Source: Candidatus Zixiibacteriota bacterium (GTDB taxonomy: Bacteria; Zixibacteria; MSB-5A5; GN15; FEB-12). Taken from it: a stretch of 64,000 bases of DNA. This document shows, piece by piece, positions 5,047-51,814 of this stretch. The translations under genes were made by a program, and so were the position numbers. Every line of letters starts with the position of its first letter. Position 1 is the first letter of the stretch. The stretch covers positions 5,271 to 69,270 of the forward strand of contig JAJRXM010000039.1 in assembly GCA_024276275.1 (NCBI GenBank), in the 5' to 3' direction. The notes under the pieces were generated by a model that ran no database searches, was not told the DNA's origin, and was given only the letters and a program-made list of their open reading frames with translations.

Positions 5047-8000
5047 TTGAAAGAGCTTTATTGCGTCCAAAATCTTGTGAAGATACGCATTTTTATGTGT
5101 AATCTTCTCTATAAATCTTTGATACTTCTAGTCGGTATCTTCTCAACATACAGTCTTGTATCTGCGTCTGAGTCTGCCCAGATAATCAGTTCCACAAACA
5201 ATACGTTAACATTACATGTTACAATTGAACCACAAAGTCTGCATAGATACGTATCAGAACAAAATGAAGTAAGTTATTATCAGTCGCTTGTTGTAGCTGT
5301 TCCGTATGATGGCGAGTTGTCGATTGCAGGATTGACTTTGGGGGCATTAAATTCATCTAGCAAAACAGGGCAAAAAGTTCAAACAGCACGACCTGATAAA
5401 ATTATAGAATTTTCAGAACCATTATTTGTACGTGGTCGTAAATTTTTTACGGTTTATATCTTTCCTGTTACACCGAGTGGTGTGTATAAAAATATCGAGC
5501 TTACTCTGAATTTTACCGGTACAACTACAAACGGTAAGGTTATTTCAGAAGATTCACCGTTTGAAAAAATGCTGTCCGCAAAGGTTGTCAATTATAAACA
5601 GTCAAAACAGTTTACTGCTCCGCCGGTTCGGAACTTTGCATCGGGAACTACTGCAGGTCCTTTTTCCGGTTCTACCGAGTGGATTAAAATTGATATAAAT
5701 AAAAACGGACTGTATAAATTAACAGGAGCACAACTTGATGCTACCGGAATGACAGTTACCGGAGAAGCATCATCTTCAATCCATCTCTATAATGCAGGCG
5801 GAGCACAGCTTCCTGTTCCGAATGAACAGGATAGACCTCAATTTACTGAAATTGCTATAAAAGTTATTGATGGGGGAGATGGGACATTTGATAGTAATGA
5901 TTATATCTTATTTTATGGTGAATCTGTAAACAGATGGATTTATGATACGACCCAAGTATTGTATCGATCCCATTCTTATTCTGAAAAGAATGTCTATTGG
6001 TTGAATACTTCATCGCTTACAGCAGGTTTACGAATTGAAACTGTAGACGGTTCAATAAACGGAGTAGTAGGCGGTTCTGTAATCCAGACGCTTGACCGCT
6101 ATACCCGTCGGGTGCATGTAGAGCAAAATAAAACGTTACGCCGATGGAGTGATAACAAAACAAATGATTACTACACCTGGTATTGGACAAAAGAGAACAG
6201 CTTGTCATTTTTTGTTGCAACTGAAAATCTAATCAGCGGTGATACTGTTGATATAGTTCTATCAGGGAAAACAATTGATACAACCGGTTCAAACGATGAT
6301 GTAGGATATATTGATTTCTTTGTGAATAATATAAAAGGTATAAATAAATCGTGTAACTTATCAGGTTGTACGTATCGTTCGACATCGTTTGTTGACGGTT
6401 CCACTGCTATTGATTTATCATTGATGTTTAATTCAAATCTTCCCCCGTATTTTAACTTCCTGGAATTAGCGTATACGTCTTATAATCAACCGATAAATAA
6501 TCAACTTGATTTACCTTTGGGGCAGTTAACAGGCAACACAGAGATTGAAGTTATTAATACATTCAATTCAAACCCGTTAATTTTGGATATTTCTAATCCG
6601 TTACTGCCGAGAGAATTGCAAATTACTTCCTATGGCTCAAACAGTTTTTCTTTTTATGACAGTCTATCTATATCAAAGTATAATAGATATTTTCTTATGC
6701 CGGAGGCACAAAGTTTAAACCCGTTAGCAGTTTCATCTGTTACAACAAATGATTTGTATCTTACACAAAATCAGGTCGATTTGATTATTATTTCACCTGA
6801 ATTCCTACAACCGTCTTTGAGTGAATATATTGACTACCGTACAACCGACGGGTATTCGGTTCAAACAGTTTCAGTAGATGATATAATGGATAATTTCGGA
6901 TTTGGACTGTATGACCCGACTGCTATTCGTGATTTTCTCAAATTTAGTTATGAAAATTACCAAGACCCAAAACCTTCTGCGGTATTGTTTGTCGGTGACG
7001 GAAACTATGATTTTTTAAATAATCTATCATCAAACATACCGAATTATGTTCCGCCGTATACACACAGGATTGATAACACATCATCCGATGACAACTATGT
7101 TTATTTTGGTGATTTTGGCATTATTGATTCAGACACAACTTATGACACATCACAGATTTCCTTTAATAGAGGATTTGACATGATGACAGCCAGATGGCCG
7201 ATTCGTACTCGAGCTGATGTACAGGTTATAACTGATAAAATTAAGCTATATGAATCAAACAATAATTTTGGTAATTGGAGAAACAACATTTCATTGGTTG
7301 CAGACGATGAATTTGGAACACTCAACAATGAAGTTTTTCACACTACACAAACAGAGGAATTAGAAAAGTATCATCTCCCTCTTACTTTTAACCGTAACAA
7401 AATTTATCTTTGGGAATACCCTTTTGTAAACGGTAAAAAACCGGAAGTGAACACTAAAATTGTTAGTGCTTTTAACTCTGGTTCTTTACTTGTCAACTAT
7501 GTAGGTCACGGTAACCCCGATGTATGGGCTCATGAAAATGTTTTTAATAGAGCAGGTGATTTACCTCGACTATATAACGACTTAAAACTTCCTTTAGTTT
7601 TAGCGGCATCATGTGCTATCGGATTTTTTGATGATCCGCTTCGTGAAGGTATGGCTGAAGAACTCCTTGCTATGTCATCCGGCGGTGCTATCGGGATTAT
7701 TTCGGCTACACGGTTAGTATACTCCTCCGACAATGCTCAGTTTAACAGAAAAGTCTACGATGTTTTGTTTAGTAATAAATCTCTTTCTATGTGTGAGGCT
7801 TTGTACACCGCAAAATTAGAACGACAATATTTGGGGTCGGTACCAAGACCGCAAGTAAACGATAGAAACTATCTCTATTTTGGCGGTCCGTTTGTGAAAC
7901 TTGCAAAGCCACAATACAAAATAAATTTTTCATCAACCCCCGATTCATTAGTAGCATTAGGTCAGGCACGAGTTGTCGGTACAGTAGTTGATAATAACGG

Positions 8001-8967
8001 GTCCGTAATTTTAGAAAATGGAATTATTGAAATAGATGTGCTGGATTCTAAACGAAATAAAATATATCAACTTAAAAATCCTAACGGTCAGGTTACGAAT
8101 GAGGTTCCGTATGCTACGAACGGTCCGACGATTTTTCGAGGTTCGGCATCTGTGACCGACGGTCAGTTTGATTTCCGGTTTGTACCTCCTTTGGATATCG
8201 GTTTTGGAGGAGAAGGGGCTCAAATTTCTGTATATGCATCTTTTAACTCTGTTGATGCTTCCGGAATTATAGACTCTATTTCAATTTCTGATTCTATTGC
8301 CGTTACAAATGATTCTTTAGGACCGGTTATCGATGCTACTTTTTCGGATCATCAAAACTTCATTTCCGGTGACTTTATCAATAAAGGAGAATCATTGATT
8401 TTACAGCTTTCAGATGAGTCAGGAATTAACTTAGCAGGTGGATTAGGTCACGGTATTACCTTGGAAATTGATAATAAACCTGAAAAATTACTTAATTTGA
8501 CCTCATATTTTAAGTATGAACAAGATAAATTTAATACAGGTTCATTGGAATTCCCTCTTGATGATTTAGAAACCGGCGTCCACTCTTTCAAAGTAAAAGC
8601 GTGGGATAACGCCAATAATTTCGCTAAAATTGAGTTTGAAGCAGAAATTAAATCTAATTCTTCACTTCAGATTGTCAATTTGCTAAATTACCCGAATCCT
8701 ATGCGTGAATCTACTCGTTTTTCATTTAGTTTGACTCAATCTGTAGATAATTTTGTATTGGATATTTTTACTCTTTCAGGAAAAAAAATAAAAACTTTTA
8801 CTCGGCAATATCTTGAACCGACATATTATGACGATATAATATGGTATGGCAATGATGTTGACGGAGATAGAGTTGCCACCGAAGTATATATATTTAAAGC
8901 CACGGCATATTCGTCAAATGACGGAGATAAAGTGGAATCATTTGGAAAAATAATTTTAGTTAATTAA
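5047..8967 (+). CDS. porU: PorU-like C25 (gingipain-family) cysteine peptidase with a T9SS C-terminal domain; candidate T9SS sortase
   Basis: 1306 aa. The signal peptide is best from ATG 5095 (MCNLLYKSLILLVGIFSTYSLVSA). It has the C25 catalytic contexts VNYVGHGN (His codon 7507-7509) and LAASCAIGFF (Cys codon 7612-7614). The C-terminus NYPNPMRESTRFSFSL...LDIFTLSGKKI resembles the T9SS sorting domain. The gene lies immediately upstream of a PorV-like gene, as in the P. gingivalis porU-porV pair. Confidence 0.75.
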   Translation: MKELYCVQNLVKIRIFMCNLLYKSLILLVGIFSTYSLVSASESAQIISSTNNTLTLHVTIEPQSLHRYVSEQNEVSYYQSLVVAVPYDGELSIAGLTLGALNSSSKTGQKVQTARPDKIIEFSEPLFVRGRKFFTVYIFPVTPSGVYKNIELTLNFTGTTTNGKVISEDSPFEKMLSAKVVNYKQSKQFTAPPVRNFASGTTAGPFSGSTEWIKIDINKNGLYKLTGAQLDATGMTVTGEASSSIHLYNAGGAQLPVPNEQDRPQFTEIAIKVIDGGDGTFDSNDYILFYGESVNRWIYDTTQVLYRSHSYSEKNVYWLNTSSLTAGLRIETVDGSINGVVGGSVIQTLDRYTRRVHVEQNKTLRRWSDNKTNDYYTWYWTKENSLSFFVATENLISGDTVDIVLSGKTIDTTGSNDDVGYIDFFVNNIKGINKSCNLSGCTYRSTSFVDGSTAIDLSLMFNSNLPPYFNFLELAYTSYNQPINNQLDLPLGQLTGNTEIEVINTFNSNPLILDISNPLLPRELQITSYGSNSFSFYDSLSISKYNRYFLMPEAQSLNPLAVSSVTTNDLYLTQNQVDLIIISPEFLQPSLSEYIDYRTTDGYSVQTVSVDDIMDNFGFGLYDPTAIRDFLKFSYENYQDPKPSAVLFVGDGNYDFLNNLSSNIPNYVPPYTHRIDNTSSDDNYVYFGDFGIIDSDTTYDTSQISFNRGFDMMTARWPIRTRADVQVITDKIKLYESNNNFGNWRNNISLVADDEFGTLNNEVFHTTQTEELEKYHLPLTFNRNKIYLWEYPFVNGKKPEVNTKIVSAFNSGSLLVNYVGHGNPDVWAHENVFNRAGDLPRLYNDLKLPLVLAASCAIGFFDDPLREGMAEELLAMSSGGAIGIISATRLVYSSDNAQFNRKVYDVLFSNKSLSMCEALYTAKLERQYLGSVPRPQVNDRNYLYFGGPFVKLAKPQYKINFSSTPDSLVALGQARVVGTVVDNNGSVILENGIIEIDVLDSKRNKIYQLKNPNGQVTNEVPYATNGPTIFRGSASVTDGQFDFRFVPPLDIGFGGEGAQISVYASFNSVDASGIIDSISISDSIAVTNDSLGPVIDATFSDHQNFISGDFINKGESLILQLSDESGINLAGGLGHGITLEIDNKPEKLLNLTSYFKYEQDKFNTGSLEFPLDDLETGVHSFKVKAWDNANNFAKIEFEAEIKSNSSLQIVNLLNYPNPMRESTRFSFSLTQSVDNFVLDIFTLSGKKIKTFTRQYLEPTYYDDIIWYGNDVDGDRVATEVYIFKATAYSSNDGDKVESFGKIILVN

Positions 8968-8983: not shown

Positions 8984-11713
8984 ATGAAACAATTAAAACG
9001 TTTGCTCTCTCTCACAATCTTCTTACTGCTGTTTTCATTTGTATCACAGACTTATGCTGATATATCTGATGCGGCATTATTGTATCTACGTATTGCTCCG
9101 GGTGCTCGTGCTGCCGGTATGGGAGAGGCGTATGTTGCTGTTGCTGATGATGCTACTTCAACCCATTGGAATCCTGCCGGATTAGGTGCCTCGCCATTAG
9201 CAACTAATTGGCAGAATAAAAATATCCCACAGTATTTACAACCGATTACCGAAATAGCTACGGTTAAAGCACGAGCCGGATCAGGACATAATCAATATGA
9301 TGTTTGGACTATCTCAGCTCAGGGACTGGTTAGGTTTGACAATCACAAGTGGTTTACCTATGAAACATTTTCAACAAGAACAGACCAAACCGTTTCAGGC
9401 ATCGTAAAAACGTATTTTAGCATAAAAGACGACCAAAAACTTGCTGAAGCTGTTGTTAAAGTTGCTGAAGCTAACTCCACTCGCTCGTTTGAAGAAGTCG
9501 AAAAGTTTGCCTCTGATGTTTTAAGTGCTGTTCCAGAAGATTACTCTGACATAGAAGGATTAGTTCTAGGACTTGATTCTCTGAAAGCCCTCTATTTAGA
9601 TTGTCGTATCAATTGGAGCCGTTATGTAGAAGCTGAAGAGATTTATAAAAACAGTATTAAAGATGAGTCATTAACTGAAAAAGAAATTGATAAGATCAAT
9701 TTTGCGGTAGAAAAATCTAGGACACGGTTTATTCCTGAAGAATTAAATATCAAATACTCTGATTTATTTACCGGGAAGTTGACTACGATTAAATCAATAG
9801 GGACTACTCTTTTAATTGGAACTGATAACGGGTTTTTTACTTTTAATGGAATAAATTGGAAAACATATACATTAGAAGACGGTTTACCTTCTTTGAATAT
9901 ACTTTCTATCTCATCTGTAGGGCCTACTGCATATATCGGTACAGATATGGGGCTTGTAAAATATAGTAATAAAAAACTATCCAAAGTGATTCTACCTGAA
10001 GATGTCCAAAACGGTGCAGTTACAGGAATCGGTGCTTCAAACAGTCTGGATATTTGGGTTGTTATCAACAACGAACTCTATAATTATGACGGTAAAAAGT
10101 GGTCTAACTCTACAACTTATACTGCTTTGCTTGATGATACCTATGAGACTATCGCAGAAAGAATATCTATTTTCAAAACGGATTCAAATATCAAAATAAT
10201 TGCGGATAGAATTAATTTACTTAATGTCATTAATCTAGCGGAAACAACAACTACTGTAGATACTGCTGCTGTTGATACTACTCTTGAACAAATATCTGAT
10301 TCTACTTTGGCAACTACTGTACAAACAACAGAAGAAACCGTAGCTGACAGTACCGAAAATCTTGTACCTTCTACAACTCACGTTCCCACTGAATTTACTA
10401 TTGAACCGGGTAAACCTGTCAAGGTTCCTTTTGCTATCGGTATTAAAGGTAAGATAAATAAAATATACACCAACGGTACTAATAATCTATGGATTGCTAC
10501 TGATATCGGTTTATATACATTTAAAAACGGTGAATGGAAAGCATCCGGTTATAAAACTATAACAGTTACTGAAGGTCAAACACTTGATGATATAGCAGGA
10601 GCGTATCCACACATGCTATTAGATAACGAAGGATATGTTTCTCTGTTAAAAGAAATCAACGGACTGGAAACATCTGACGGTCTTATAGCAGAACAATCTC
10701 TAAAAGTGTTTAGCAATCCGTTGGCATATAAAATCAATGATGTCAGTTCTAATGGTACCGGTTTATATGTGGCTACCGGACGTGGATTGTATGAATTACA
10801 TGGTACAACGTTGTCTAAAGTTGATATCGGCGGTATGGGCAACTCCAATATTTTAAATGTAAAAACTGAAGGTAACGAGATTTGGTTTGCCTCTGATAAA
10901 AAAATTGCTATAAAAGCAAGCGGTCGTTCTGATATCTCTTTGATGTTTGCTAAATGGCTTCCACAGCTTGCCGATGATATGTATTACGGTTTTCTCTCCG
11001 GTGCTACTAATATCAGCGGATGGGGTACTTTTGGCGGTAATATAACCTATATCAACTATGGTACGGTTCAAAGAAGAGGTCAGGGAAATACTGATGAAGG
11101 TGTGTTCTATCCTTTTGATATAGCTTTTACATTATCTTATGGCGGTTCAGTGCTTGATAAACTCAAAGGAGGGGTTTCGGCAAAATTTATATATTCTCAT
11201 TTGAGTTTGCAGGGTGCCGGAGCTGAAAAAGGTGCCGGAACTGCTACCGGAGTAGGTCTGGATTTTGGTATTCTATGGAATATAAGCAAACGATTTGATC
11301 TTGGGGCAGCTGTTACCAATATCGGTCCTGACATTTCTTATATCGATGCTGCTCAGTCCGACCCGTTACCAAGAAATCTTGCAATAGGAATTAAAACAAA
11401 TTTGTTGAGTTCTGAATATAGTCATGCTATCTTTACCGTCGAAGTAAATAAGTCATTGGTAGGAATCAATGACGGATTTAGTGAAGAACTTAAACAGTTA
11501 GTTATAAACGGTGGATTTGAATATGCATATTCAGATATTTTTGCTGCCCGTTTCGGATATATATGGGATGATGAGGGTGAAGTAAAAACTCCGACTCTCG
11601 GATTTGGTGTAACTCCGTTAAGTAATTTTAAATTTGATTTTGCTTATATTCCGAGCAATACTAATGCACCGTTAGCAAATACATTACGGATATCAATGCA
11701 GATAACCCCGTAA
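8984..11713 (+). CDS. porV: PorV/PorQ-family outer-membrane barrel with a roughly 580-aa internal insertion
   Basis: 909 aa. AGGAG at 8973-8977 precedes the start, and the protein has a signal peptide. The family-typical N-terminal strand motif is LRIAPGARAAGMGEAYVAVADDATSTHWNPAGLG. The barrel-like region resumes near nt 10930 (FGGNITYINYG...GVGLDFGILWN...LGAAVTNIGPDISY...LPRNLAIGIK). The segment between them carries repeated propeller-like motifs (LWIATDIGLYTFKNGEWK, LYVATGRGLYEL, IWVVINNELYNYDGKKW) and a Thr/Val-rich linker. Confidence 0.6.
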   Translation: MKQLKRLLSLTIFLLLFSFVSQTYADISDAALLYLRIAPGARAAGMGEAYVAVADDATSTHWNPAGLGASPLATNWQNKNIPQYLQPITEIATVKARAGSGHNQYDVWTISAQGLVRFDNHKWFTYETFSTRTDQTVSGIVKTYFSIKDDQKLAEAVVKVAEANSTRSFEEVEKFASDVLSAVPEDYSDIEGLVLGLDSLKALYLDCRINWSRYVEAEEIYKNSIKDESLTEKEIDKINFAVEKSRTRFIPEELNIKYSDLFTGKLTTIKSIGTTLLIGTDNGFFTFNGINWKTYTLEDGLPSLNILSISSVGPTAYIGTDMGLVKYSNKKLSKVILPEDVQNGAVTGIGASNSLDIWVVINNELYNYDGKKWSNSTTYTALLDDTYETIAERISIFKTDSNIKIIADRINLLNVINLAETTTTVDTAAVDTTLEQISDSTLATTVQTTEETVADSTENLVPSTTHVPTEFTIEPGKPVKVPFAIGIKGKINKIYTNGTNNLWIATDIGLYTFKNGEWKASGYKTITVTEGQTLDDIAGAYPHMLLDNEGYVSLLKEINGLETSDGLIAEQSLKVFSNPLAYKINDVSSNGTGLYVATGRGLYELHGTTLSKVDIGGMGNSNILNVKTEGNEIWFASDKKIAIKASGRSDISLMFAKWLPQLADDMYYGFLSGATNISGWGTFGGNITYINYGTVQRRGQGNTDEGVFYPFDIAFTLSYGGSVLDKLKGGVSAKFIYSHLSLQGAGAEKGAGTATGVGLDFGILWNISKRFDLGAAVTNIGPDISYIDAAQSDPLPRNLAIGIKTNLLSSEYSHAIFTVEVNKSLVGINDGFSEELKQLVINGGFEYAYSDIFAARFGYIWDDEGEVKTPTLGFGVTPLSNFKFDFAYIPSNTNAPLANTLRISMQITP

Positions 11714-15050: not shown

Positions 15051-15965
15051 ATGAAAAAATATATACTGAGTGCTTTACTTCTGATATGTCCCCTAACGGC
15101 AGATGCATCTGAGTTTTTACAACAATCAGAATTTGACGTAGCTCAATCAAAAATCAAGTACTCACTTTTAAACAGTGATATTGCAAGTCAAAAGTTTCAA
15201 GATTCTGAATCCGGTGAAATTACTTATAAAAACGGTAAATCCGATAGCAAAACTAATTCTTATAAATCTCCCGGGAAAGCGTTTGCTATGTCACTTTTAA
15301 TCCCCGGTATGGGACAGCTTTATGTCGGAGACTCCAAATTAAAATCTCTTGCATTTTTCGGTACAGAAGTAACAAGTTGGATACTTTTCTTTAAGTGGGG
15401 AAAAGATGCTGATGATTTAACTGCTGCGTATGAAAAGTTTAACAACGATCATTGGATAGAATCTCGTTATATTGATATGCTCCAATGGACTTATGGTTTG
15501 GAAAATGATGATAATACCAGTGGATTGTATCCTGAATTAAGTCACCATTTGCCTAAAACAAAAGTACAACAATACTATGAAATGACCGGTAAATATGACC
15601 AGTTTTCATGGGGATGGGATGATGCTATGCTGCTTTCAGATAGTACGGTTTATGGCGATTACAGTCTGAACAATCCATTTCCTGTTTTAAATAGCCAGGA
15701 AAATATCCCTTTTTCTGCCAGAAGAAATGCCTATGAAATTATGCGTGATGATGCCAACAATAAATACAGTCAGGCACGAAAAATGGTTTATGTTTCAATG
15801 ATAAATAGAATGTTTGCGGCATTTGAAGCATTGATTGCCGCCAAAAGAAATAATAGAAATAGTGACGGTGGTTCTATCTTATCATCGTTATCAGCCGAGG
15901 CATCGTTTAAAAGTTCCTATGTCAAACGTGACACGCCGTATATAACATTGAGCATGAAGTTTTAA
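15051..15965 (+). CDS. hypothetical envelope protein, DUF5683-like (paralog 1)
   Basis: 304 aa with a signal peptide. It carries the motif SLLIPGMGQLYVGDSKLKSL, a C-terminal helix INRMFAAFEALIAAKR, and ends in ...LSMKF (terminal Phe). Confidence 0.45.
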   Translation: MKKYILSALLLICPLTADASEFLQQSEFDVAQSKIKYSLLNSDIASQKFQDSESGEITYKNGKSDSKTNSYKSPGKAFAMSLLIPGMGQLYVGDSKLKSLAFFGTEVTSWILFFKWGKDADDLTAAYEKFNNDHWIESRYIDMLQWTYGLENDDNTSGLYPELSHHLPKTKVQQYYEMTGKYDQFSWGWDDAMLLSDSTVYGDYSLNNPFPVLNSQENIPFSARRNAYEIMRDDANNKYSQARKMVYVSMINRMFAAFEALIAAKRNNRNSDGGSILSSLSAEASFKSSYVKRDTPYITLSMKF

Positions 15966-15975
15966 GAGAGAAAAT

Positions 15976-16767
15976 ATGAGTAGACTATATAACATATCTG
16001 TTTTTATTATTATATCAGCACTAACTGTTCAAGTAAGTTATAGCATAGAACTAAGTCAGACACCAATACAAAATCAGTTAAAGAATTCAATTTTACTTGC
16101 TGCTGATAGTTGGAATCTTGACGGGAAAAAAGATGCTGATAATAATTATATTGTAACCTCTCAAGGTATAAAACAAAAAAAATCAGCATTCAAAGCAGCT
16201 CTTTATTCAGCTCTGCTTCCGGGTCTGGGTGAACACTATGTCGGCAATAGAACCAAAGCAAAAGTTTTCTTTACGACCGAGGCTCTTACGTGGATGAGTT
16301 ATATTGCTTTCCGGACCTATGGAGATTGGAAAAAAGATGATATGGTTCGTTATGCTGCCGGTAAAGCGGGAGCAACTTTAGACGGAAAAAATGATGAGTA
16401 TTTTGACTGGGTCGGGTTTTATAATTCGACTGAAGACTTTAATTCTCTTGGTCGGGTTTCTGACCCTTCAAGAGCTTATCTAACAGGTTCAGATAACTAT
16501 TGGCAATGGGAATCTGATAACGACCGTGAAAATTTTAGAAGTTTAAAAAACAGCAGCCGTACGGCATACAATAGAGCAGGATTTATGGTTGTGGCTGCTA
16601 TAGGAAATAGAATTATTTCAATTATCGATGCAATACGTGATGCCAAACGAGCTAATAGTCATGAAAAGATAGATATCTCAGAAAAAAAATCTTATAACTA
16701 TAAATTTGCGGTTGACCCTTTAAGTTATAACAGGCAATTCTCAATAACGGTCTATACACCGTTTTAA
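15976..16767 (+). CDS. hypothetical envelope protein, DUF5683-like (paralog 2)
   Basis: 263 aa. It carries the motif SALLPGLGEHYVGNRTKAKV, a C-terminal helix GNRIISIIDAIRDAKR, and ends in ...VYTPF. The architecture matches the upstream gene. Confidence 0.45.
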   Translation: MSRLYNISVFIIISALTVQVSYSIELSQTPIQNQLKNSILLAADSWNLDGKKDADNNYIVTSQGIKQKKSAFKAALYSALLPGLGEHYVGNRTKAKVFFTTEALTWMSYIAFRTYGDWKKDDMVRYAAGKAGATLDGKNDEYFDWVGFYNSTEDFNSLGRVSDPSRAYLTGSDNYWQWESDNDRENFRSLKNSSRTAYNRAGFMVVAAIGNRIISIIDAIRDAKRANSHEKIDISEKKSYNYKFAVDPLSYNRQFSITVYTPF

Positions 16768-24461: not shown

Positions 24462-25451
24462 ATGAACACAGATATTCAGGAAATTCAAGCACGAGTTGAA
24501 AAAGAGGCACAGTTTGTCGAAAAACTGATGACGCAGATAAGTTCCGTCATTGTCGGACAGAGCTATCTGATAGAACGTCTACTGATAGGAATTTTAGCTG
24601 ACGGACATATTCTTATCGAGGGTGTCCCCGGATTGGCTAAAACTCTTTCGGTGAATACTCTTGCCAATGCGATACAGGCAAAATTTCAAAGATTACAATT
24701 TACACCGGACTTGTTACCTGCCGATTTAATCGGAACAATGATTTACAATCCGCAGACATCAGAATTTACAATCAAAAAAGGACCTGTCTTTGCTAACATC
24801 ATCTTAGCCGATGAAATCAACCGTGCCCCTGCCAAAGTGCAGTCAGCTCTTCTTGAAGCAATGCAGGAGCGTCAGGTTACTATAAGCGATACGACGTATA
24901 AGCTTGATGAACCGTTTTTGGTAATGGCAACGCAGAACCCGATTGAACAGGAAGGTACTTATCCTCTTCCTGAAGCACAAATCGATAGGTTTATGCTGAT
25001 GCTCAAAATTGGTTACCCGTCACCGACAGAAGAACGGATTATCATGGATAGAAATACTTCTTCTGAAAAAATAACTATCGAAAAAATTATTACTCCCGCT
25101 GAAATAATATCAGCTCGTGAAGTTGTCCGTTCGATTTATATTGATGATAAAATCAAAGACTATATTATTAATATTGTTTTTGCTACCCGTGAACCTGAAA
25201 AATACGGACTCGCTGAAATTAAAGATTTGATTTCTTTTGGAGTTTCTCCTCGTGCGACAATCTATCTTAATTTGGCAGCAAAAGCACACGCTTTCTTAAG
25301 AGGTCGTGGATATGTTACTCCTGAAGATATTAAAGCTATCGGGCATGATGTTCTCAGGCACCGTTTGCTGGTAACATATGAAGCGGAAGCTGAAGAAATA
25401 AACTCCGATGATTTAGTAACAAAGATATTTGACGCTATTGAGGTTCCGTAA
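24462..25451 (+). CDS. MoxR-family AAA+ ATPase
   Basis: 329 aa with Walker A GVPGLAKT and Walker B ILADEINRA, and the typical MoxR length and layout. It is the first gene of a Bat-type locus. Confidence 0.9.
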   Translation: MNTDIQEIQARVEKEAQFVEKLMTQISSVIVGQSYLIERLLIGILADGHILIEGVPGLAKTLSVNTLANAIQAKFQRLQFTPDLLPADLIGTMIYNPQTSEFTIKKGPVFANIILADEINRAPAKVQSALLEAMQERQVTISDTTYKLDEPFLVMATQNPIEQEGTYPLPEAQIDRFMLMLKIGYPSPTEERIIMDRNTSSEKITIEKIITPAEIISAREVVRSIYIDDKIKDYIINIVFATREPEKYGLAEIKDLISFGVSPRATIYLNLAAKAHAFLRGRGYVTPEDIKAIGHDVLRHRLLVTYEAEAEEINSDDLVTKIFDAIEVP

Positions 25452-25460
25452 ATAGAAGAT

Positions 25461-26336
25461 ATGATACCTAAAGAGATATTAAAAAAAATACGGCGTATTG
25501 AAATTCATACCAATAAATTGGTGAATGACCTTTTTTCAGGTGAGTATCATTCTACATTTAAAGGTCAGGGTATGGAATTTGAAGAGGTACGCCAGTATGT
25601 AGCGGGTGATGATATTCGTCTTATAGATTGGAATGTGACTGCCCGTACCGGATATCCTCATATTAAAAAATTCCGTGAAGAACGTGAATTGTCAGTTGTA
25701 CTTTTGTTCGATGCATCATCATCGGGGAAGTTTGGAACAAGGGATAGATTCAAAAGTGAAACTGCTGCCGAATTATCTGCCCTGTTGGCATTTTCAGCTA
25801 TCAAAAACAACGACAAAGTCGGGTTGATTATTTTTACCGATAAAATTGAAAAATTTATCCCGCCCCAAAAGGGAAGAGGTCATGTTTTGAGGTTGATTCG
25901 GGAAGTTCTCTACTTTGAACCTGAGTCTGTAGGTACCGACATCAATGGAGCTTTAGAGTATCTCAATAAAGTTATCAAACGAAAATCAGTTGTATTTCTT
26001 ATCTCTGATTTTATGTCGGAAGATTTTTATAAACCGTTGCAGATTGCTAATAACAAGCATGATGTTATCGCGATGAAAATTTCTGATCCGCGGGAAACAT
26101 CATTTGAAAATGTCGGACTTATCGAATTAGAAGATTCCGAAACCGGAGAAGTCTTTTTAGTGGACACATCTTCTAAAAAATTCCGAAATGAATTTACTGC
26201 CCGTGCCGACGAAGATAATGTCAATTTAGTAAAAGGGTTCAGGCTTATCAATGTTGACTTTATCAATATTCGAACAGATGAATCATATATCATTCCGCTC
26301 ATCAATTTCTTTAAAATGAGGGGGAAACGTCATTGA
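25461..26336 (+). CDS. DUF58 (vWA-like) protein
   Basis: 291 aa. It has the GEYHSTFKGQGMEFEEVRQYVAGDDIRLIDWNVTAR signature typical of DUF58 partners of MoxR. Confidence 0.85.
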   Translation: MIPKEILKKIRRIEIHTNKLVNDLFSGEYHSTFKGQGMEFEEVRQYVAGDDIRLIDWNVTARTGYPHIKKFREERELSVVLLFDASSSGKFGTRDRFKSETAAELSALLAFSAIKNNDKVGLIIFTDKIEKFIPPQKGRGHVLRLIREVLYFEPESVGTDINGALEYLNKVIKRKSVVFLISDFMSEDFYKPLQIANNKHDVIAMKISDPRETSFENVGLIELEDSETGEVFLVDTSSKKFRNEFTARADEDNVNLVKGFRLINVDFINIRTDESYIIPLINFFKMRGKRH

Positions 26337-27397
26337 TGAGAATCTATAAACCTGTCATACCTATTATAATATCATTTGTGTTTCTATTGCTGCTTACCGC
26401 TGATAGTTTTGCAGAAATTGATTCGACCGCCCAAAGTGAAAAACTTGCGGGAGTCGAAATACAAACCTCTATAAATAAGGCAGAGATTTATATCGGCGAC
26501 TTGGTGGAATACAAACTCACTATAATATATGATTCTACTATTGAACTAATACCGCCACCACTAGGTGCAAACCTTGGGGCTTTTGATGTCAAAGATTACC
26601 AACCTGATATTGAGACAAAACTTGATGACGGACGAATCCAAAGTGAGAACAAATTTATTCTTTCAACTTTTACAACAGGCGATTATGTTATTCCCTCAAT
26701 TCCGATTCTTTTTACATTGCCTGACGGTACACAAAAAGTCATGTATTCCGAATCGGTTCCTATTAAAGTAGTTTCACTTCTTTTTGACACCGATGATGAT
26801 CAGGAAATTGCACCGTTAAAACCGCAATATGAATTCAAACGAGACTATACTTGGTATTACATTATAGGTTCAATTTTATTAATACTTCTATTGCTTGCCG
26901 GAATAATTATTCGCAGACGTATGTTAAAATCAAAAGATGATTCCGAACCTGTTGATTTACGTCCGGCATGGGAAATCGCATTTGAAAAGCTGGCATTTTT
27001 AAAACAGAACAATTATCTGCAAAATTCTGAATTTAAATCATACTATATTGAATTAACCGACATAGTAAGACTCTTTCATGAAAAAATGTATAAACAAAAC
27101 TTCAGAGACATGACGACTGAGGAGTTTCTTGCGGCATTCCAAGAATTAGAACTACCTGAATCTCTCTATGAAAATACTAAGAAATTCTTACAACATGCTG
27201 ACTTAGTAAAATTTGCTAAATACATTCCGGAAATAGAACGCTCAAAATCAGACTACGAGTTAATTCATCAGATGATTGAACAAGTGCGTGTAGACACACT
27301 TAAAAAAGAAGAAGAGATCCGCTTAATTGAAGCTCAGAAAGAAAAAAATAAAACTGAGACTGTAGTTGCGAGTAAAGCAGATGAGGTGAAATCATGA
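26333..27397 (+). CDS. BatD/DUF4381-like membrane protein (third upstream gene of the Bat locus)
   Basis: 354 aa. It has a signal peptide, an Ig-like N-terminal region, one TM helix (YYIIGSILLILLLLAGIIIRRR), and a C-terminal region ending LVKFAKYIP, as in BatD-type proteins. Confidence 0.55.
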   Translation: MMRIYKPVIPIIISFVFLLLLTADSFAEIDSTAQSEKLAGVEIQTSINKAEIYIGDLVEYKLTIIYDSTIELIPPPLGANLGAFDVKDYQPDIETKLDDGRIQSENKFILSTFTTGDYVIPSIPILFTLPDGTQKVMYSESVPIKVVSLLFDTDDDQEIAPLKPQYEFKRDYTWYYIIGSILLILLLLAGIIIRRRMLKSKDDSEPVDLRPAWEIAFEKLAFLKQNNYLQNSEFKSYYIELTDIVRLFHEKMYKQNFRDMTTEEFLAAFQELELPESLYENTKKFLQHADLVKFAKYIPEIERSKSDYELIHQMIEQVRVDTLKKEEEIRLIEAQKEKNKTETVVASKADEVKS

Positions 27398-28437: not shown

Positions 28438-28448
28438 GGGGACTAAAG

Positions 28449-29447: not shown

Positions 29448-29461
29448 GGATATATTTTTGT

Positions 29462-45697: not shown

Positions 45698-48600
45698 GTG
45701 AAAACTATATCTAAAGTATTATTACAATTTACACTCGCCTGCATAGCAGTACTTTCTACTGCTGTGTTTTCTTTTGCAGAAATCGGGTTTCATGCTAAAC
45801 TTGATACTCCTCCGTTATTTATTACTCATTACGAGGAAGTAGAAGATAAAATCTCTGTAGCTATATATCCCAAAACATATCCAATTCTTTCAAGATGGTT
45901 AAAATATAAACCTCGCCCAAAAGAATCTAATTTTGCCGAAAATTCTATCCGGTTTGAGACAGAGTATTTTAATATTAAAAGAGATAAATATTTTCTTATA
46001 CCTCTTTCAGTAGATGCTGAAAAATATTCGCAATATCGTATCAGAAAATCTCTTCAAAAAAAACTACGTGAAAATTTTAGTCGGTCGATTAGTAAAGACC
46101 CTACGAAGAAAAAAGGCTCAGGTTTAGGAGTACAGGTTGCTCTGCCTAAAAGATTAGAAAAGATTTTTGGTGAAGGCTCGGCCGGACTTAAAATTTCGGG
46201 TAGAAGAAGAATTTCTTTTGCCGGAAGATCAAACTGGTCCGATGAGGCGACATCCGGTATCAATCAAAGTAAATTTCCGGCACTTGTAATGGACCAGGTT
46301 TCACAGTTTAACATTACAGGTACTATCGGTTCAAAAATTACGGTAAAAGTTTCTCAAGATTCGCAAACTGATATTCCACTTGCCAATAGAATTCAGATTC
46401 GGTACAGAGGGGACGAGGATGATATCTTAAAAGCTATTGAAGCGGGCAATACAACACTTTCTCTTCCTAACACAAAGTTCGTCGGATATTCATCTCGTAT
46501 CAGAGGTTTATTTGGCTTAAAAACCGAAGCACAAGTAGGTAATTTGCGACTTACAGCTATTGCTTCACAAGAAAAAGGTTCGTCAGAAACAACATCTATT
46601 ACTGCCGGTGGTGAAGAAAGCGTAGAGTACATTCGGGATTACGAATATGTCGAACGAAGAATTTTTGATTTAGTTCTGCCTTTCGATAGCTTAAAACCGA
46701 CCGAAAGAGTAACAGTTCTTGATATGTACGAATCGGTTCCAAGTTATAATTCTATTGAAGATCAAATTGTTGCAAATTTTTACGTTGATCCGGACAGTAC
46801 CGCAAGGTTCGCTTCTGAAGCAGTCAAGGGTAACGATACTAAAATTAAAGCAATTCCAAGTACAAAATATAGATTTTATCACGACAGTAAACGAAACGTT
46901 CCCTATGTTGTTTTTAATTCACCTCAGTCAAGAAACAATCATATCGGTTATTACATGGAAGTCGAAGATGAAAACGGTGCGGTGCGAACATTTGGTGATT
47001 TAGGAGATACTCTAGAGACACCTATAGATTCGGTTATGGTAATAGATTCTATTACAAATGATACAACCTATGATGTTACTTATAAATATTCTCTTCTCTA
47101 TAAGTTAAAACTTTTAATTCGTGCTGAACCACTTCCGGCTCCTACTGATCAGACTTGGAAGCTTATGTGGCGGAATTGTTATAATGTTCCTAAGGGAGCT
47201 CTTATTGAAGATATAAAGTTTAAAGTTCTAAAAGGACTAGAGGGTAATGAAAAAAGTACTAACTCTGTACCTTATCAAATAGAAGGTTCAAAGAATATAG
47301 ATTATCTTGAGATTCTTGGACTGGATTTAAAGAATACAAATACCGGAAAAGATACTCCCGATGGAATTGTCGATGATGACCCACTTATATATAGATCCGA
47401 CTGGGGTTTGGTTATTTTCCCTAGCAGAACACCGTTCAACGATACTATAACATATCAGTATGGCAATACAGAATTACCGGGATTAGATAAGAAGGTTCCT
47501 GAACTGTATAACTATACTTCGTGGACTGAAAAAACAGAAAGAAGTGAGTATTTTATTCAAAAAGTAACCACAACTCGTGGTTCTATTATTCGCCTTAACC
47601 GAGCGAATATTATAGAAGGCTCAGAACGGATTACAGTTAACGGTGAAATCTTGAAAAAAGGGATTGACTATGACATTCAGTACGATTTTGGACAAGTAAC
47701 ACTTCGGTCTGAAAAAGCAACAGACCCAAATGCTCAAATTAAAGTCGATTTTGAATACGCACCGTTTTTTGCGGTACAAAAAAAATCTCTCCTGGGACTT
47801 CGTGCGGAATATGAGTGGAGTAAAGATTTAAAATTCGGTTCTACATTTTTATATAAATCTGATAAAGCACAAGAGAGAAAACCGAAAGTTGGACAGGAAA
47901 CAGCTCGTACGGTAATTTTTGATGCTGATTTATCGCTTAAATTATATCCTGAATTTTTAACTTCTATGGTAGATGCTTTACCGTTTATTGAAACAGAATC
48001 TAAATCAAACTTGACTATTTCAGCAGAAATAGCTCAGTCTCATCCAAATCCGAATGTTAATGAAGTAGCCTATGTTGATGACTTTGCAACAGCTCTAGAC
48101 AATATCTCACTAGGTACTTTTAGAACAGTTTGGAAACAAACTTCACTTCCGGCACAACTTGATGCAAGCGAATATGTACAGGCAAAAATGCTGTGGCATA
48201 GACCTATAAACCAAACACCAATTACTGATATTTATAACAGAGATACTCAAGCCGGAAGTGGGACTATGCGTACTTTCCGGATGATTTTCAGACCGCAAAA
48301 TCAGGTGGTTGATACCGCTGTTGCTGAAGACTCATCATTAACTATTACCACTACCCCGACTAAATCCTGGGGGGGGATTATGAGGTATTTTGGCTCTCCG
48401 TTACAAGAAAACAGAGTAAAATTATTTGAAGTGCGGATGAGAGCAACGAGTGGTAAAATTCATTTTGACTTTGGTGCTATCAATGAAGATTTAAACAATA
48501 ATGATAATGCTGATACCGAGGATCGTGATAATAGTAATGATATTGATATAGAAGGTACCGAAGATACAGGGTTAGACGGGTTGATGGACAAGGATGAAGT

Positions 48601-51600
48601 ACCTGAAGGTGAGTATGACCCGTCCGTTAATCCTGATCCAAACGGAGATAACTGGTACTCGTTTTTTGATGGGAAAGGGAAATGCCCTCTACCGGAAGGA
48701 TGTGATGCTATAGACGCAGATGATTATAATAATCCTCGATATTATGATTTTTTAAACGGTACTGAAGGAAACATCTCCGACGGGGGATCGTCACGACTTC
48801 CTGATAAAGAAAAGTACTCTCCGGGATTTACTACGAATAATGCCTATTTCTCGTATGTTCTTGATTTAGATAATTACCCTGACAGCTTTCTTGTAAAAGA
48901 TTCAAAAAGATATCCTGAAAATGATTTGAATCAGCTCCCGTGGGTTACCTATCGAATTCCGATTAAAGACCCTGATGCAATAGACCAAATTATTACATCT
49001 GAAGGGGGTATTCAACCTGAATGGAATAAAATAACTCATGTTCGTATATGGATGGAAGGTGACGAACTCAGTACAAAATGGGATACAGTTGAAGTTGCCG
49101 ATTGGTATTTTGTTCAGCCGAACTGGAGAGATTCCGTTATTTTCTCACCTCTTTCAGATATGAAGTCTGATTTTGTTATAGCATCTATCGGTGATGATAT
49201 AGATACGAATTTTTATCCTCCTCCTAGTGTGGAAGCATACAAAGACCCGACTACAAACGTAATAGAAGTTCAAAAAGCTTTGCAACTGACTTTTGAAAAT
49301 TTAAATCAACAGGATACTTGTATTGCTACTAAGAACCTTCTTTCGATTGACCAGTATTCAGGCTATAGAAGAATTGAGATGTTTGTACATGGCGATGAAA
49401 ATATTGTCACAAATACGGATATTGATAAAATTAGATTTTTCTTTAGACTCGGGCGTGATGATAAAAATTATTATGAATATTTTACAAATATTAAACCCGG
49501 TTGGGATCAGTCAAACCATGTTAATATTGATTTTAACGAACTGACAGCTTTAAAAGATTCAGCATTAAAAGTTCTTAAAAAAGGGGAGGTGCTGAATGTC
49601 GAAAATGATAAATATAGAATAACAGGTAACCCGAATATAAACGAAATTAAATTTTTGGCTGTAGGCGTGCTAAATGAAGATACCGTTAATTCTATTAGCG
49701 GGAATATATGGATTGATGAGTTACGGGTAACCGATGTACGAAAAGATGTCGGTACAGCCGGTCGTATTTCTGCGAATGGAAATATGGCGGATCTTATCAG
49801 CTATAATTTCTCTTTGCAGTCTAAAGATCCGTTCTTTAGAGGACTCTCATCAGCAACCCGTGGTGGTTCACAAAATAATTTAGGCTCCGGTAGACATGAA
49901 ACTACTATGAGTTCAAGTATGACTTTTAATTTACATAAACTACTTCCTCAGTCTTGGAGTGCATCGATACCGGTTACTTTGAGTTATAATAAGTCAGTAC
50001 AAACTCCATTGTTAAGAAACAATTCTGATATAATACTTGCTGAAGAAACTCGTATTGAGGAACAACGGGTAAGCGAATCTAAATCCTTTTCGATCTCCGC
50101 TAAATTTAAAAAGAAAACAAAAAACCCACTTTTCTCTGTTTTATTAAACCGATTGAATTCAAGAATGTCGTATAGACAAACAAATTTAAAATCAGTTAAT
50201 TTTTCTTATAACTACGGAGAAGTTCTTGATTTAAAAGCGGATTATAATTTGAATATAAAAAAGATACCGAAAATTCCTATTTTCTTCTTTTTAAAGTCAA
50301 TTCCTATTCTGAAAAAAGCATCCGATTCTAAACTTTCTTTATATCCGGATTCTTGGACTATGAACGGGAGTTTTAACCGAAGTATTTCTATTCGTGATGC
50401 TGTTAATTCTACGAGACGTACAGATTTAAAGAGAAATTTCACCGGATCAATGAAAATTAGTTTTAAATTCTTTAATAAATTGGTGTCTAGCTATAGCTAT
50501 AACACTCGAAGAGATTTGACTAATCTAGAACTAATTAATTTTAAATTTAACAGAAAAGATTTTAAACTTGGGCTGGAAACATATTACGGGCAAAAGTTTA
50601 CTGCCTCTTATGACCCGCAGTTGCTAAAATTCTTTACCACCAGCTTTTCATATAAATCATCGTACTCCGATGATCTAGAACGTACGAATCTAACCAGACG
50701 TTCAGCACTATCAAGAAATATGTCCGTTGGAGGTACTTTCGATCACCAGGCTCTACTAGGTGGAAAAAGCACTTCTTCATCAGGTCGAAGTTTTAAAGGA
50801 CGACGTGGTGGGCGAAAAAAGAATGTTATTGAAGAAGAGAATAAAAAGAAAAAGAAATTTTATGAACCGGTTCTAACAGGGGTAAGAAAACTAACCGGAT
50901 GGATTAGCCCTTTCAAGTATTCTTACAATACCAACTTTACTAATTCTTTGCCGGGACTGGTAAAAAGACCTAACTATAGATATCTCTTTGGTTTTACAGA
51001 CGATGCAAATGTAGAGACATTGGAAGATACTAGAATTCAAAAATCCGGAAATGGGGAATCGTATGATATTTCTTCCGGTTTTACTTTCCTTGGCGGTCTT
51101 GTTACAACTGTTAAATTCCGTAGGTCAATTTCGCGTGATTTGGTAAAACAGGGTAAACGGTTTGAAAATATATCAGAGAATTGGCCGGATTTAGGTATCC
51201 GTATTACTAAATTCAGAAATTTACCTTTAATTCAGTCTTATGTAAATAAATTTATTGATATATTTTCTCCTCGCACAGGTTTTTCAAGGTCGGTAAAGGA
51301 ATCAAGAGATAGAGACGGTAATTTCACGGTTACAAAATCCACAAGTACAGGGTTTAATCCGTTACTGCAAATAAATTTTAAACTGTTCCGCTCACTTTCT
51401 TTAACGAGTTCTGTAACTCGCTCTATTACCGAAAGCGAAACTCATTCACCGGTTGATGGAGTATTGCAGTCAACATCTACAACGAGTAAACAGACATTTG
51501 CTTTGACAACTAAGTATTCGTTTACATCCCAAAACGGTATCTCAATTCCTATCTTTGGAAGATTGAAATTTAGGTCTACCGTAGATTTATCGATGAATGT

Positions 51601-51814
51601 GAAATTTAATTCTTCTAAAACTGAAAACCATGTTGTAATTGGAAATCTTAATAATGTTACAAACGATGAATCATCTATATCTTTTAATCCGGTGATTGCC
51701 TATACTTTCAGCCGTCAGATAAAAGGAGGTATCACTATGAGATGGCAGGATGTAAAAGGGCGAAGAAATAATCACACTCGTGAAGTTCAACTTTGGACAG
51801 AAATTAGTTTCTAG
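45698..51814 (+). CDS. sprA: T9SS translocon protein SprA (Sov)
   Basis: 2038 aa with a GTG start and a signal peptide. It has the typical SprA N-terminal segments (GLKISGRRRISFAGRSNW, IEAGNTTLSLPNTKF) and beta-barrel-type composition throughout. The terminal residue is Phe (LWTEISF). Confidence 0.8.
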   Translation: MKTISKVLLQFTLACIAVLSTAVFSFAEIGFHAKLDTPPLFITHYEEVEDKISVAIYPKTYPILSRWLKYKPRPKESNFAENSIRFETEYFNIKRDKYFLIPLSVDAEKYSQYRIRKSLQKKLRENFSRSISKDPTKKKGSGLGVQVALPKRLEKIFGEGSAGLKISGRRRISFAGRSNWSDEATSGINQSKFPALVMDQVSQFNITGTIGSKITVKVSQDSQTDIPLANRIQIRYRGDEDDILKAIEAGNTTLSLPNTKFVGYSSRIRGLFGLKTEAQVGNLRLTAIASQEKGSSETTSITAGGEESVEYIRDYEYVERRIFDLVLPFDSLKPTERVTVLDMYESVPSYNSIEDQIVANFYVDPDSTARFASEAVKGNDTKIKAIPSTKYRFYHDSKRNVPYVVFNSPQSRNNHIGYYMEVEDENGAVRTFGDLGDTLETPIDSVMVIDSITNDTTYDVTYKYSLLYKLKLLIRAEPLPAPTDQTWKLMWRNCYNVPKGALIEDIKFKVLKGLEGNEKSTNSVPYQIEGSKNIDYLEILGLDLKNTNTGKDTPDGIVDDDPLIYRSDWGLVIFPSRTPFNDTITYQYGNTELPGLDKKVPELYNYTSWTEKTERSEYFIQKVTTTRGSIIRLNRANIIEGSERITVNGEILKKGIDYDIQYDFGQVTLRSEKATDPNAQIKVDFEYAPFFAVQKKSLLGLRAEYEWSKDLKFGSTFLYKSDKAQERKPKVGQETARTVIFDADLSLKLYPEFLTSMVDALPFIETESKSNLTISAEIAQSHPNPNVNEVAYVDDFATALDNISLGTFRTVWKQTSLPAQLDASEYVQAKMLWHRPINQTPITDIYNRDTQAGSGTMRTFRMIFRPQNQVVDTAVAEDSSLTITTTPTKSWGGIMRYFGSPLQENRVKLFEVRMRATSGKIHFDFGAINEDLNNNDNADTEDRDNSNDIDIEGTEDTGLDGLMDKDEVPEGEYDPSVNPDPNGDNWYSFFDGKGKCPLPEGCDAIDADDYNNPRYYDFLNGTEGNISDGGSSRLPDKEKYSPGFTTNNAYFSYVLDLDNYPDSFLVKDSKRYPENDLNQLPWVTYRIPIKDPDAIDQIITSEGGIQPEWNKITHVRIWMEGDELSTKWDTVEVADWYFVQPNWRDSVIFSPLSDMKSDFVIASIGDDIDTNFYPPPSVEAYKDPTTNVIEVQKALQLTFENLNQQDTCIATKNLLSIDQYSGYRRIEMFVHGDENIVTNTDIDKIRFFFRLGRDDKNYYEYFTNIKPGWDQSNHVNIDFNELTALKDSALKVLKKGEVLNVENDKYRITGNPNINEIKFLAVGVLNEDTVNSISGNIWIDELRVTDVRKDVGTAGRISANGNMADLISYNFSLQSKDPFFRGLSSATRGGSQNNLGSGRHETTMSSSMTFNLHKLLPQSWSASIPVTLSYNKSVQTPLLRNNSDIILAEETRIEEQRVSESKSFSISAKFKKKTKNPLFSVLLNRLNSRMSYRQTNLKSVNFSYNYGEVLDLKADYNLNIKKIPKIPIFFFLKSIPILKKASDSKLSLYPDSWTMNGSFNRSISIRDAVNSTRRTDLKRNFTGSMKISFKFFNKLVSSYSYNTRRDLTNLELINFKFNRKDFKLGLETYYGQKFTASYDPQLLKFFTTSFSYKSSYSDDLERTNLTRRSALSRNMSVGGTFDHQALLGGKSTSSSGRSFKGRRGGRKKNVIEEENKKKKKFYEPVLTGVRKLTGWISPFKYSYNTNFTNSLPGLVKRPNYRYLFGFTDDANVETLEDTRIQKSGNGESYDISSGFTFLGGLVTTVKFRRSISRDLVKQGKRFENISENWPDLGIRITKFRNLPLIQSYVNKFIDIFSPRTGFSRSVKESRDRDGNFTVTKSTSTGFNPLLQINFKLFRSLSLTSSVTRSITESETHSPVDGVLQSTSTTSKQTFALTTKYSFTSQNGISIPIFGRLKFRSTVDLSMNVKFNSSKTENHVVIGNLNNVTNDESSISFNPVIAYTFSRQIKGGITMRWQDVKGRRNNHTREVQLWTEISF

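Follow-up and report, generated by a model that had tools for sequence, protein, structure and literature searches.

A long PorV of Zixibacteria with a single-site insertion predicted to hold a beta-propeller, a helical bundle and LysM-like modules

Introduction

PorV is central to models of type IX secretion, in which it picks up cargo at the SprA/Sov pore, delivers it to the PorU sortase and is regarded as mobile within the outer membrane. In Bacteroidota it is a protein of ~400 aa (PDB 6H3I and 8GL6 chain F; NF033710) with a 14-stranded barrel of the FadL type and a hatch motif, ARAAGxG...WNPA, and it is encoded beside porU. Type IX secretion systems (T9SS) outside the Bacteroidota are almost unstudied. 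Here we describe a PorV-family gene in a 64,000-nucleotide stretch of a Candidatus Zixiibacteriota genome (contig JAJRXM010000039.1; the whole stretch is referred to below as the window), and we call its product long PorV. It shares the barrel, the hatch motif and the porU neighbor with its Bacteroidota counterparts, and the loop regions that bind the C-terminal domain (CTD) of cargo proteins align between them, but ~575 residues lie between the hatch and strand 1 where the Bacteroidota proteins have ~6.

The inserted residues invite comparison with PorE (PG1058) of Porphyromonas gingivalis, a periplasmic T9SS lipoprotein in which a propeller is combined with an OmpA_C peptidoglycan-binding domain, and which bridges PorP to the cell wall (PMC9143113; PMC12773672). 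PorE is also heavily O-glycosylated. Both proteins appear to place a beta-propeller and a peptidoglycan-binding type of domain in the periplasm, linked to an outer-membrane FadL-type barrel, but in long PorV the module and the barrel form one protein, the domain is LysM-like rather than OmpA_C, and the barrel is PorV rather than PorP. Scans with Pfam and NCBIfam gave no match to the TPR, CRD or OmpA_C parts of the PorE domain set (TPR, WD40 and CRD together with OmpA_C, on a lipoprotein), and long PorV has no lipobox. We regard the likeness to PorE as a presumed analogy of function and not as homology.

Blade sequence homology and the best structural match to the insert are found with the hybrid two-component system (HTCS) sensors BT4663, BT4673 and BT3049 (Reg_prop, PF07494), which are periplasmic and bind glycans. 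These sensors carry two propellers and a YYY domain on an inner-membrane kinase, whereas long PorV has a single propeller, together with a helical bundle and LysM modules, on an outer-membrane barrel. PorZ (5M11), a part of the T9SS attachment complex, is likewise made of seven-bladed propellers of the BT4663 class and is weakly similar to the insert. It differs in being a secreted CTD protein with two propellers and no LysM, held on the surface by PorQ; in long PorV, hidden Markov model (HMM) scans and the structural model gave a single propeller and no CTD, and the location is probably periplasmic. The Treponema pallidum proteins TP0548, TP0859 and TP0865 offer a parallel in layout, as FadL-family barrels with a hatch and an NPA motif to which a soluble domain in the periplasm has been added, a layout termed 'bipartite topology' (PMC8407342). 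In those proteins the addition is a small C-terminal helical (TPR) domain, whereas here it is a large propeller that lies ahead of strand 1, next to the hatch, in a protein of the T9SS.

In the searchable literature no paper pairs PorV or type IX secretion with Zixibacteria, and neither a PorV–LysM nor a PorV–propeller fusion is described, with PorV and LysM together giving unrelated co-mentions only; the architecture of long PorV is apparently undescribed there. Homologues stand in public databases under automatic names, as "PorV/PorQ family protein" and once as "LysM ... protein".

Results

Family membership and insertion point

Long PorV scores 233.7 bits with the NCBIfam model PorV_fam NF033709 (cutoff 90) and 80.6 bits with the Pfam PorV family PF19572 (cutoff 27), and the PorV match falls into two separate pieces, at aa ~34-68 and aa ~645-907. 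Its sole phmmer match among all PDB sequences is Flavobacterium johnsoniae (Fjo) PorV (6h3i_F), with query residues 6-66 paired with Fjo PorV 3-64 and query 648 paired with Fjo PorV 71, so that ~575-580 residues of long PorV stand where Fjo PorV has ~6. Excision in silico of aa 71-645 leaves a 334-aa remainder that aligns with Fjo PorV unbroken across the junction (query 6-253 to Fjo 3-260, E 1.8e-28) and matches PorV_fam in one stretch (profile positions 3-324 of 326, 258.9 bits). A first-pass annotation, made from the sequence alone, had proposed a PorV-like barrel with an insertion of ~580 residues at nt 9190-10930, and the two-part HMM match and clean excision bear this out: long PorV is a complete PorV with a clean single-site insertion of ~575 residues. 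The expected PorV/PorQ-family score was thus obtained with both family models. The PorQ model NF033711 gave 74.1 bits (91.6 after excision), below its cutoff of 220, so that the protein does not qualify as a PorQ, and the PorV2 score was 40.3 bits (52.3 after excision); the score with the PorV equivalog model is far above both. The features of the gene and of its T9SS neighbors are listed in Table 1.

Table 1. Coordinates of long porV, its parts and associated genes in the window
Feature	Position (nt)	Strand	Basis
Long porV, 909 aa + stop	8984..11713	+	Open reading frame (ORF); PorV_fam; PF19572; AlphaFold2 (AF2) model
Putative Sec-type signal peptide, aa 1-25 (...SQTYA|D), without lipobox	8984..9058	+	Sequence reading; helix 2-18 in AF2; inferred cleavage site
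Putative FadL-type N-terminal hatch/plug segment with NPA motif (LRIAPGARAAGMGEAYVAVADDATSTHWNPAGLG)	9059..9193	+	Conservation; no AF2 strand; aligns with Fjo PorV 3-64
Insert, aa 71-646: Reg_prop-class beta-propeller of seven blades, interrupted by three excursions	9194..10921	+	AF2 full-length and insert-only; Foldseek; profile against PDB; phmmer
Velcro strand of blade 7 (aa 75-80) and blade 1 (aa 90-130)	9206..9373	+	DSSP E75-80, E90-95, E105-111, E114-118, E126-130
Six-helix bundle excursion, aa 137-245, after blade 1	9392..9718	+	Helices 137-145, 150-163, 169-182, 190-205, 211-224, 232-245
Blades 2-4, aa 253-380 (repeats 1-3 of the first-pass annotation)	9740..10123	+	DSSP; source of sequence matches to multi-Reg_prop proteins and HTCS sensors
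LysM-like module 1, aa 376-483, after blade 4, split by disordered loop	10109..10432	+	Beta-alpha-alpha-(loop)-beta in DSSP; hhalign
Thr/Val/Asp/Glu-rich disordered loop, aa 419-470, with 4 D-S/T-hydrophobic sequons	10238..10393	+	Predicted local distance difference test (pLDDT) < 50 in both models
Blade 5, aa 491-520 (repeat 4 of the first-pass annotation)	10454..10543	+	DSSP E491-496, 502-506, 510-514, 517-520
LysM-like module 2, aa 523-578, after blade 5	10550..10717	+	Borderline Pfam LysM score; beta-alpha-alpha-beta in DSSP
Blades 6-7, aa 584-645 (repeat 5 of the first-pass annotation)	10733..10918	+	DSSP
14-stranded PorV barrel, aa 650-907	10931..11704	+	14 long DSSP strands; Foldseek; HMM stretch 645-907
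porU, T9SS sortase	5047..8967	+	NF033707 685.9 bits (cutoff 420)
M6-like metalloprotease-fold protein with FG-GAP repeats and T9SS CTD, 1099 aa	11740..15039	+	NF052323 283 bits (below cutoff 600); Por_Secre_tail TIGR04183 25.5 bits (cutoff 23)
Two adjacent paralogous DUF5683-like genes	15051-15965 and 15976-16767	+	Weak PF18935 matches
SprA/Sov T9SS translocon	45698..51814	+	TIGR04189 591.7 bits (cutoff 200)

The inserted module

A full-length AF2 model built from a 109-sequence alignment has a mean pLDDT of 85.8 and a predicted template modeling score (pTM) of 0.78, and a model of the insert alone, from an alignment of 28 sequences that are exact substrings of database homologue proteins, has a pLDDT of 84.8 and a pTM of 0.79. 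In both models the insert forms a seven-bladed propeller, which excursions leave after blades 1, 4 and 5. Blade 7 is formed by aa 623-645 and completed by strand 75-80 (velcro closure); the two ends of the insert therefore meet, which fits the very short connector between hatch and strand 1. Residues W76 and W108 are invariant among the homologues, and column information is 2-3 bits across most of the insert.

Foldseek with the full model ranks the HTCS sensor propellers BT4673, BT4663 and BT3049 next after PorV. With the insert-only model the HTCS propellers come out on top (E 6e-8 to 1e-6), then Ycf48 and Vgb lyase, with PorZ 5M11 at rank 21 (E 5.4e-6). A profile of the insert family compared with PDB gave E 1.6e-22 for BT4663, ~1e-15 (to 2e-15) for BT4673 and BT3049, 0.038 for PorZ and 0.22 for a LysM endopeptidase, and phmmer with the insert matches multi-Reg_prop proteins at 1e-15 to 1e-25. 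The Pfam model PF07494 gives no match in this protein, either at E<=0.1 over the whole length or at E<=10 over aa 249-399, although it scores 22.9-59.8 bits in homologues (cutoff 20.4). Of the HMM searches suggested with the first-pass annotation, those with PorV/PorQ-family models thus come out above cutoff, and that with Reg_prop does so in homologues but not here. The insert is a Reg_prop-class propeller by profile homology and fold, though Pfam misses this sequence. The five repeats and the Thr/Val tract (aa 420-470, nt 10241-10393) reported earlier are all found in the translation. The assignment of the repeats to the Reg_prop type is upheld by the BT4663 and Foldseek matches, and they are blades 2-6 of seven. 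The propeller and the low-complexity tract had thus been recognized correctly, and the helical bundle and both LysM-like modules overlooked.

The six-helix bundle is modeled with pLDDT > 90 and carries the conserved motifs CRINW and FAVEKSRxRFIPEEL. Pfam assigns no family to the bundle alone (aa 131-250), and likewise none to blades 2-4 alone.

The other two excursions are LysM-like. Module 2 exceeds the Pfam LysM cutoff when scored as an isolated segment, several homologues carry precomputed PF01476 matches, and one of these proteins is named a LysM protein by NCBI. Pfam LysM gives no match to module 1 in this protein; after removal of the loop, the profile of its family aligns with the LysM2 profile at 96.9% probability in hhalign (E 1.8e-10), and by this profile comparison module 1 is a homologue of module 2.

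The Thr/Val tract, taken for a linker in the first-pass annotation, is instead a variable, sequon-rich loop that separates helix 2 from the last strand within LysM-like module 1. Across the 109 homologues its length ranges from 2 to 80 aa (median 50), and it is rich in E, A, T, D, V, S and P. The general O-glycosylation motif of Bacteroidota is D-[ST]-[AILVMT], and there it marks periplasmic domains, such as those of PorE, PorW, LptD and TamA. The motif occurs 202 times in the 109 loops against 48±6 in composition-preserving shuffles (z≈24, a ~fourfold excess) and 158 times against 38±5 in the 87 non-redundant loops, with permuted or related control motifs reaching z<=4.7. Its density is 3.98 per 100 aa in the loops and 0.39 in the rest of the proteins (~tenfold), and four of the five sequons of long PorV itself lie within the loop. 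With moderate confidence, it is probably an O-glycosylated periplasmic loop, provided that such a system exists in these phyla; its sequons suggest that Zixibacteria may have the general O-glycosylation system of Bacteroidota or a relative with the same sequon.

Hatch, barrel and side of the membrane

Foldseek with the full model matches PorV (8gl6_F, E 9.6e-17; 6h3i_F, E 1.1e-13), and FadL and TbuX come further down the list. The 14-stranded barrel of FadL is plugged by an N-terminal hatch whose conserved NPA motif is essential for the conformational change of the hatch (PMC8407342). The corresponding block of long PorV is the best-conserved part of the protein (3.4-3.9 bits per column), and HWNPAGLG at aa 61-68 is invariant among the 109 homologues and pairs with QWNPA of Fjo PorV. 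The first-pass annotation took this N-terminal motif for the first strand, and we considered the corresponding topology, with the insert in extracellular loop 1. It was rejected on three grounds: the AF2 model has no beta strand between aa 34 and aa 68, the insert is followed by 14 strands, and residues mapped from Fjo PorV (below) oppose it. Judged from the model, the GARAAGMGEA...HWNPAGLG motif is better read as the lumenal hatch of the FadL family, its position in the lumen of long PorV being predicted by likeness to FadL.

Experimental assignments for Fjo PorV (PMC10994853) put N87 and F115 in the extracellular loops that touch the CTD, and residues 193-199 in a loop on the periplasmic side. 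By the HMMER alignment N87 falls in the S1-S2 loop (model strands 650-657 and 667-677), F115 in the S3-S4 loop, which follows strand 681-691, and residues 193-199 in the turn that joins S6 (752-766) to S7 (771-780). Strand S1 (aa 650-657) therefore starts in the periplasm and runs outward. The last propeller strand ends at aa 645, ~4 residues ahead of S1, and with so short a connector the propeller should sit at the periplasmic rim. We infer with strong confidence, from the model, that the inserted module (~62 kDa) hangs in the periplasm beneath the PorV barrel. The sequon-rich loop fits this topology independently. The earlier suggestion of a propeller exposed either at the surface or in the periplasm is in this way narrowed to the periplasm by the orientation of strand 1.

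Conservation and taxonomic spread

A search of 5.8 billion proteins returned more than 120 homologues over the full length, 838-959 aa in size and drawn from many independent assemblies, which belong to Zixibacteria, Calditrichaeota or the Fibrobacteres–Chlorobi–Bacteroidetes (FCB) group where named. Genome loci were taken as the best 80 of 267 stretches encoding relatives in species-representative genomes, and all 80 hold the long form; most are metagenome-assembled genomes of Zixibacteria, including several closed chromosomes, and the rest include GN15, Calditrichaeota and bins labeled Ignavibacteriales. Architecture and operon are kept across these loci down to 32% identity. The insert alone recovers 59 clusters (50%-identity representatives) at E<1e-30 with phmmer, nearly all with an insert start at aa ~69-72. 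More distant variants of 734-1052 aa are all PorV plus Reg_prop by Pfam, with the hatch motif at aa ~30-70 and the insert straight after "WNPAGLGxYPL", and one of them, of 820 aa, comes from candidate phylum UBP14 and lies in the same operon. Base composition is smooth over the insert borders and the ORF is continuous. Because the insertion site, the operon and the column information are all kept, comparison of these sequences indicates that the insertion is old, common to several phyla and under purifying selection.

Many bins with the Zixibacteria-type operon (loci L009, L011, L020-L022 and others) are titled 'uncultured Ignavibacteriales', and one locus (L035) bears the label Candidatus Deferrimicrobium. 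Such titles seem to be placeholders or taxonomic misassignments, not signs that the operon occurs in those groups. Antisense ORFs of 142 and 90 aa lie within the insert region of porV, at 9643-10071 (-) and 10576-10848 (-), and are most likely spurious because the sense-strand protein is strongly conserved.

Discussion

Proposed role of long PorV

On balance we favor, by analogy, a reading in which long porV is the regular PorV orthologue of the Zixibacteria T9SS and its module serves as a periplasmic peptidoglycan tether and as a platform on which the PorV–PorU attachment machinery docks. The same window encodes SprA, in whose lateral opening PorV proper docks, and CTD proteins, those of type A being the ones that PorV proper binds. 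The architecture would have arisen by one ancient domain insertion between the lumenal hatch (...HWNPAGLG) and barrel strand 1. The LysM modules would bind glycan strands of peptidoglycan, the propeller and helical bundle would offer a protein-docking surface, and PorV, along with the PorU sortase at the surface and any CTD cargo bound to it, would be set in place with respect to the cell wall and the periplasmic parts of the T9SS, a role that would equal that of separate Porphyromonas proteins such as PorE. The binding and tethering to peptidoglycan are held with moderate confidence, and the added recognition or docking function proposed in the first-pass annotation is plausible.

Several points weigh against this reading. 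PorV of Bacteroidota is modeled as a laterally mobile carrier that leaves the translocon with its cargo (PMC10994853), and tethering to peptidoglycan, which is probable for long PorV, conflicts with that model. The PorV equivalog model NF033710 gives 180.0 bits for the native protein and 203.5 after excision, both below its cutoff of 250, and by this sequence score the protein may not be an exact functional equivalent of Bacteroidota PorV; the genomes may also encode a second, short PorV. Pfam LysM (PF01476) scores module 2 at 22.6 bits as an isolated segment and at 19.2 in the whole-protein scan, and scores module 1 at 13.5-19.2 bits in homologues, against a cutoff of 20.9. Both modules have additional residues between their helices, so that ligand binding by them may have been lost. 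The side of the membrane, strongly as it is argued, rests on strand counting and residue mapping and not on inspected model coordinates, and the sequon reading of the loop presumes an O-glycosylation system of the Bacteroidota type in Zixibacteria.

A PorV that carries, throughout a phylum, a ~62 kDa module that is probably periplasmic, peptidoglycan-binding and glycosylated would test the need for PorV mobility. It would also be a compact, fused version of functions that are split over several Bacteroidota proteins, and would help to assign their roles (PorE, PorW/Skp, ring contacts). A bolder proposal, which we make tentatively, is that in Zixibacteria, UBP14 and related FCB lineages PorV is a wall-anchored, O-glycosylated, stator-like unit rather than a free shuttle, its built-in periplasmic propeller–LysM module standing in for PorE, and perhaps for PorW/Skp or ring contacts as well. 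Sorting by the type IX system would in that case work with an immobile PorV, and periplasmic O-glycosylation of the Bacteroidota type would extend to these phyla.

Periplasmic placement would be just as well explained by a docking or cargo-handling platform without peptidoglycan binding, an alternative that we think rather unlikely. The propeller, the bundle and LysM folds that have degenerated might then replace the periplasmic extension of the translocon (SprE/PorW, Skp, the PorD 'dish') or link PorV with a ring or motor of the PorK/N type, so as to recruit CTD cargo or to pass on the force that releases PorV from SprA. The periplasmic face of F. johnsoniae PorV contacts SkpA, and a periplasmic structure stands beside PorV there (PMC10994853), while P. 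gingivalis attachment complexes sit on PorK/N rings; the bundle motifs, strongly conserved and belonging to no known family, and the marginal LysM scores also suit such a platform. What leads us to prefer the tether is that two LysM-like modules are kept across phyla, that characterized Reg_prop propellers bind glycans, and that the present analysis identified no partner protein.

The kinship with PorZ raises another alternative, that the propeller is a surface PorZ-like module in a PorV/PorQ-type barrel, binding the glycolipid anchor and presenting it to PorU, so that the roles of PorQ–PorZ and PorV would be merged. The propellers of PorZ have seven blades and are likewise BT4663-like, PorZ is found at rank 21 by Foldseek and weakly by profile search, long porV adjoins porU, and neither porZ nor porQ is seen in the window. 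HTCS propellers match far better than PorZ, however, and the insert has no CTD and precedes strand 1 at the periplasmic rim on a 4-residue connector. A folded loop domain of ~62 kDa would need to cross the outer membrane, and the LysM modules and a loop with sequons typical of the periplasm favor the periplasm. We consider this alternative improbable.

Still less probable is a regulatory gate, in which a ligand or a pull on the module would move the NPA hatch and in that way control lateral interactions or the lumen of PorV. The insertion does fall directly after a motif that is essential for the hatch movement of FadL (PMC8407342), in the best-conserved segment of the protein, but the idea is purely speculative, no function being known for the lumen or hatch of PorV in the T9SS, and the data do not separate a gate from the passive tether that we prefer. 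The idea of an artefactual long ORF, whether through chimeric assembly or through a PorV gene spuriously joined to an unrelated propeller gene (the join artefact against which the first-pass annotation had cautioned), found no support, has a negligible chance of being right and was rejected on conservation, given the same architecture in >120 proteins and the same architecture and gene order in 80 species-level loci, from independent assemblies with closed chromosomes among them, an insertion point constant in variants of 734-1052 aa, and a continuous ORF with smooth base composition and a confident single-chain model.

The operon and other genes of the window

The gene directly upstream of long porV is porU in all 80 loci and in UBP14. 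In the window the distance from the porU end to the porV start is 17 nt, and the upstream ORF encodes 1306 aa. This PorU ORF has a TTG start and ~200 residues ahead of the sortase model match (aa 209-1304), so that the protein either has an extra N-terminal domain or truly starts further downstream; the CTD match at its C-terminus is weak.

Downstream of long porV an M6-like CTD protein is encoded in 75 of the 80 loci, with the contig ending first in the other five, and UBP14 has it as well. With an operon position like that of PorZ, this protein could be a fixed partner of PorU and PorV. The 1099-aa protein of the window has an intact HEFGH (HExxH) despite its sub-cutoff match to a model named 'M6-like inactivated metalloprotease'. 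The position of the two DUF5683-like genes is kept in most loci long enough to show them, and the five-gene operon of porU, long porV, the M6-like CTD gene and the DUF5683-like pair is conserved across Zixibacteria and UBP14.

Among the scanned ORFs of at least 150 aa in the window, the T9SS genes are porU, porV, the CTD protein gene and sprA, and no porK/L/M/N, porE, porQ or porZ was found. The SprA/Sov homologue has 2038 aa, and its match spans positions 441-1900 of the 2319-position family model. An ORF of 312 aa just downstream of sprA (51857-52795) gave no family match. The selA and selB genes for selenocysteine incorporation, at 52777-56042 (+), adjoin the sprA region, and the regions 24462-30283 (+) and 35026-37811 (+) contain a BatA/BatB/BatC-like (aerotolerance-type VWA/TPR) cluster and the bacillithiol biosynthesis genes bshC and bshA.

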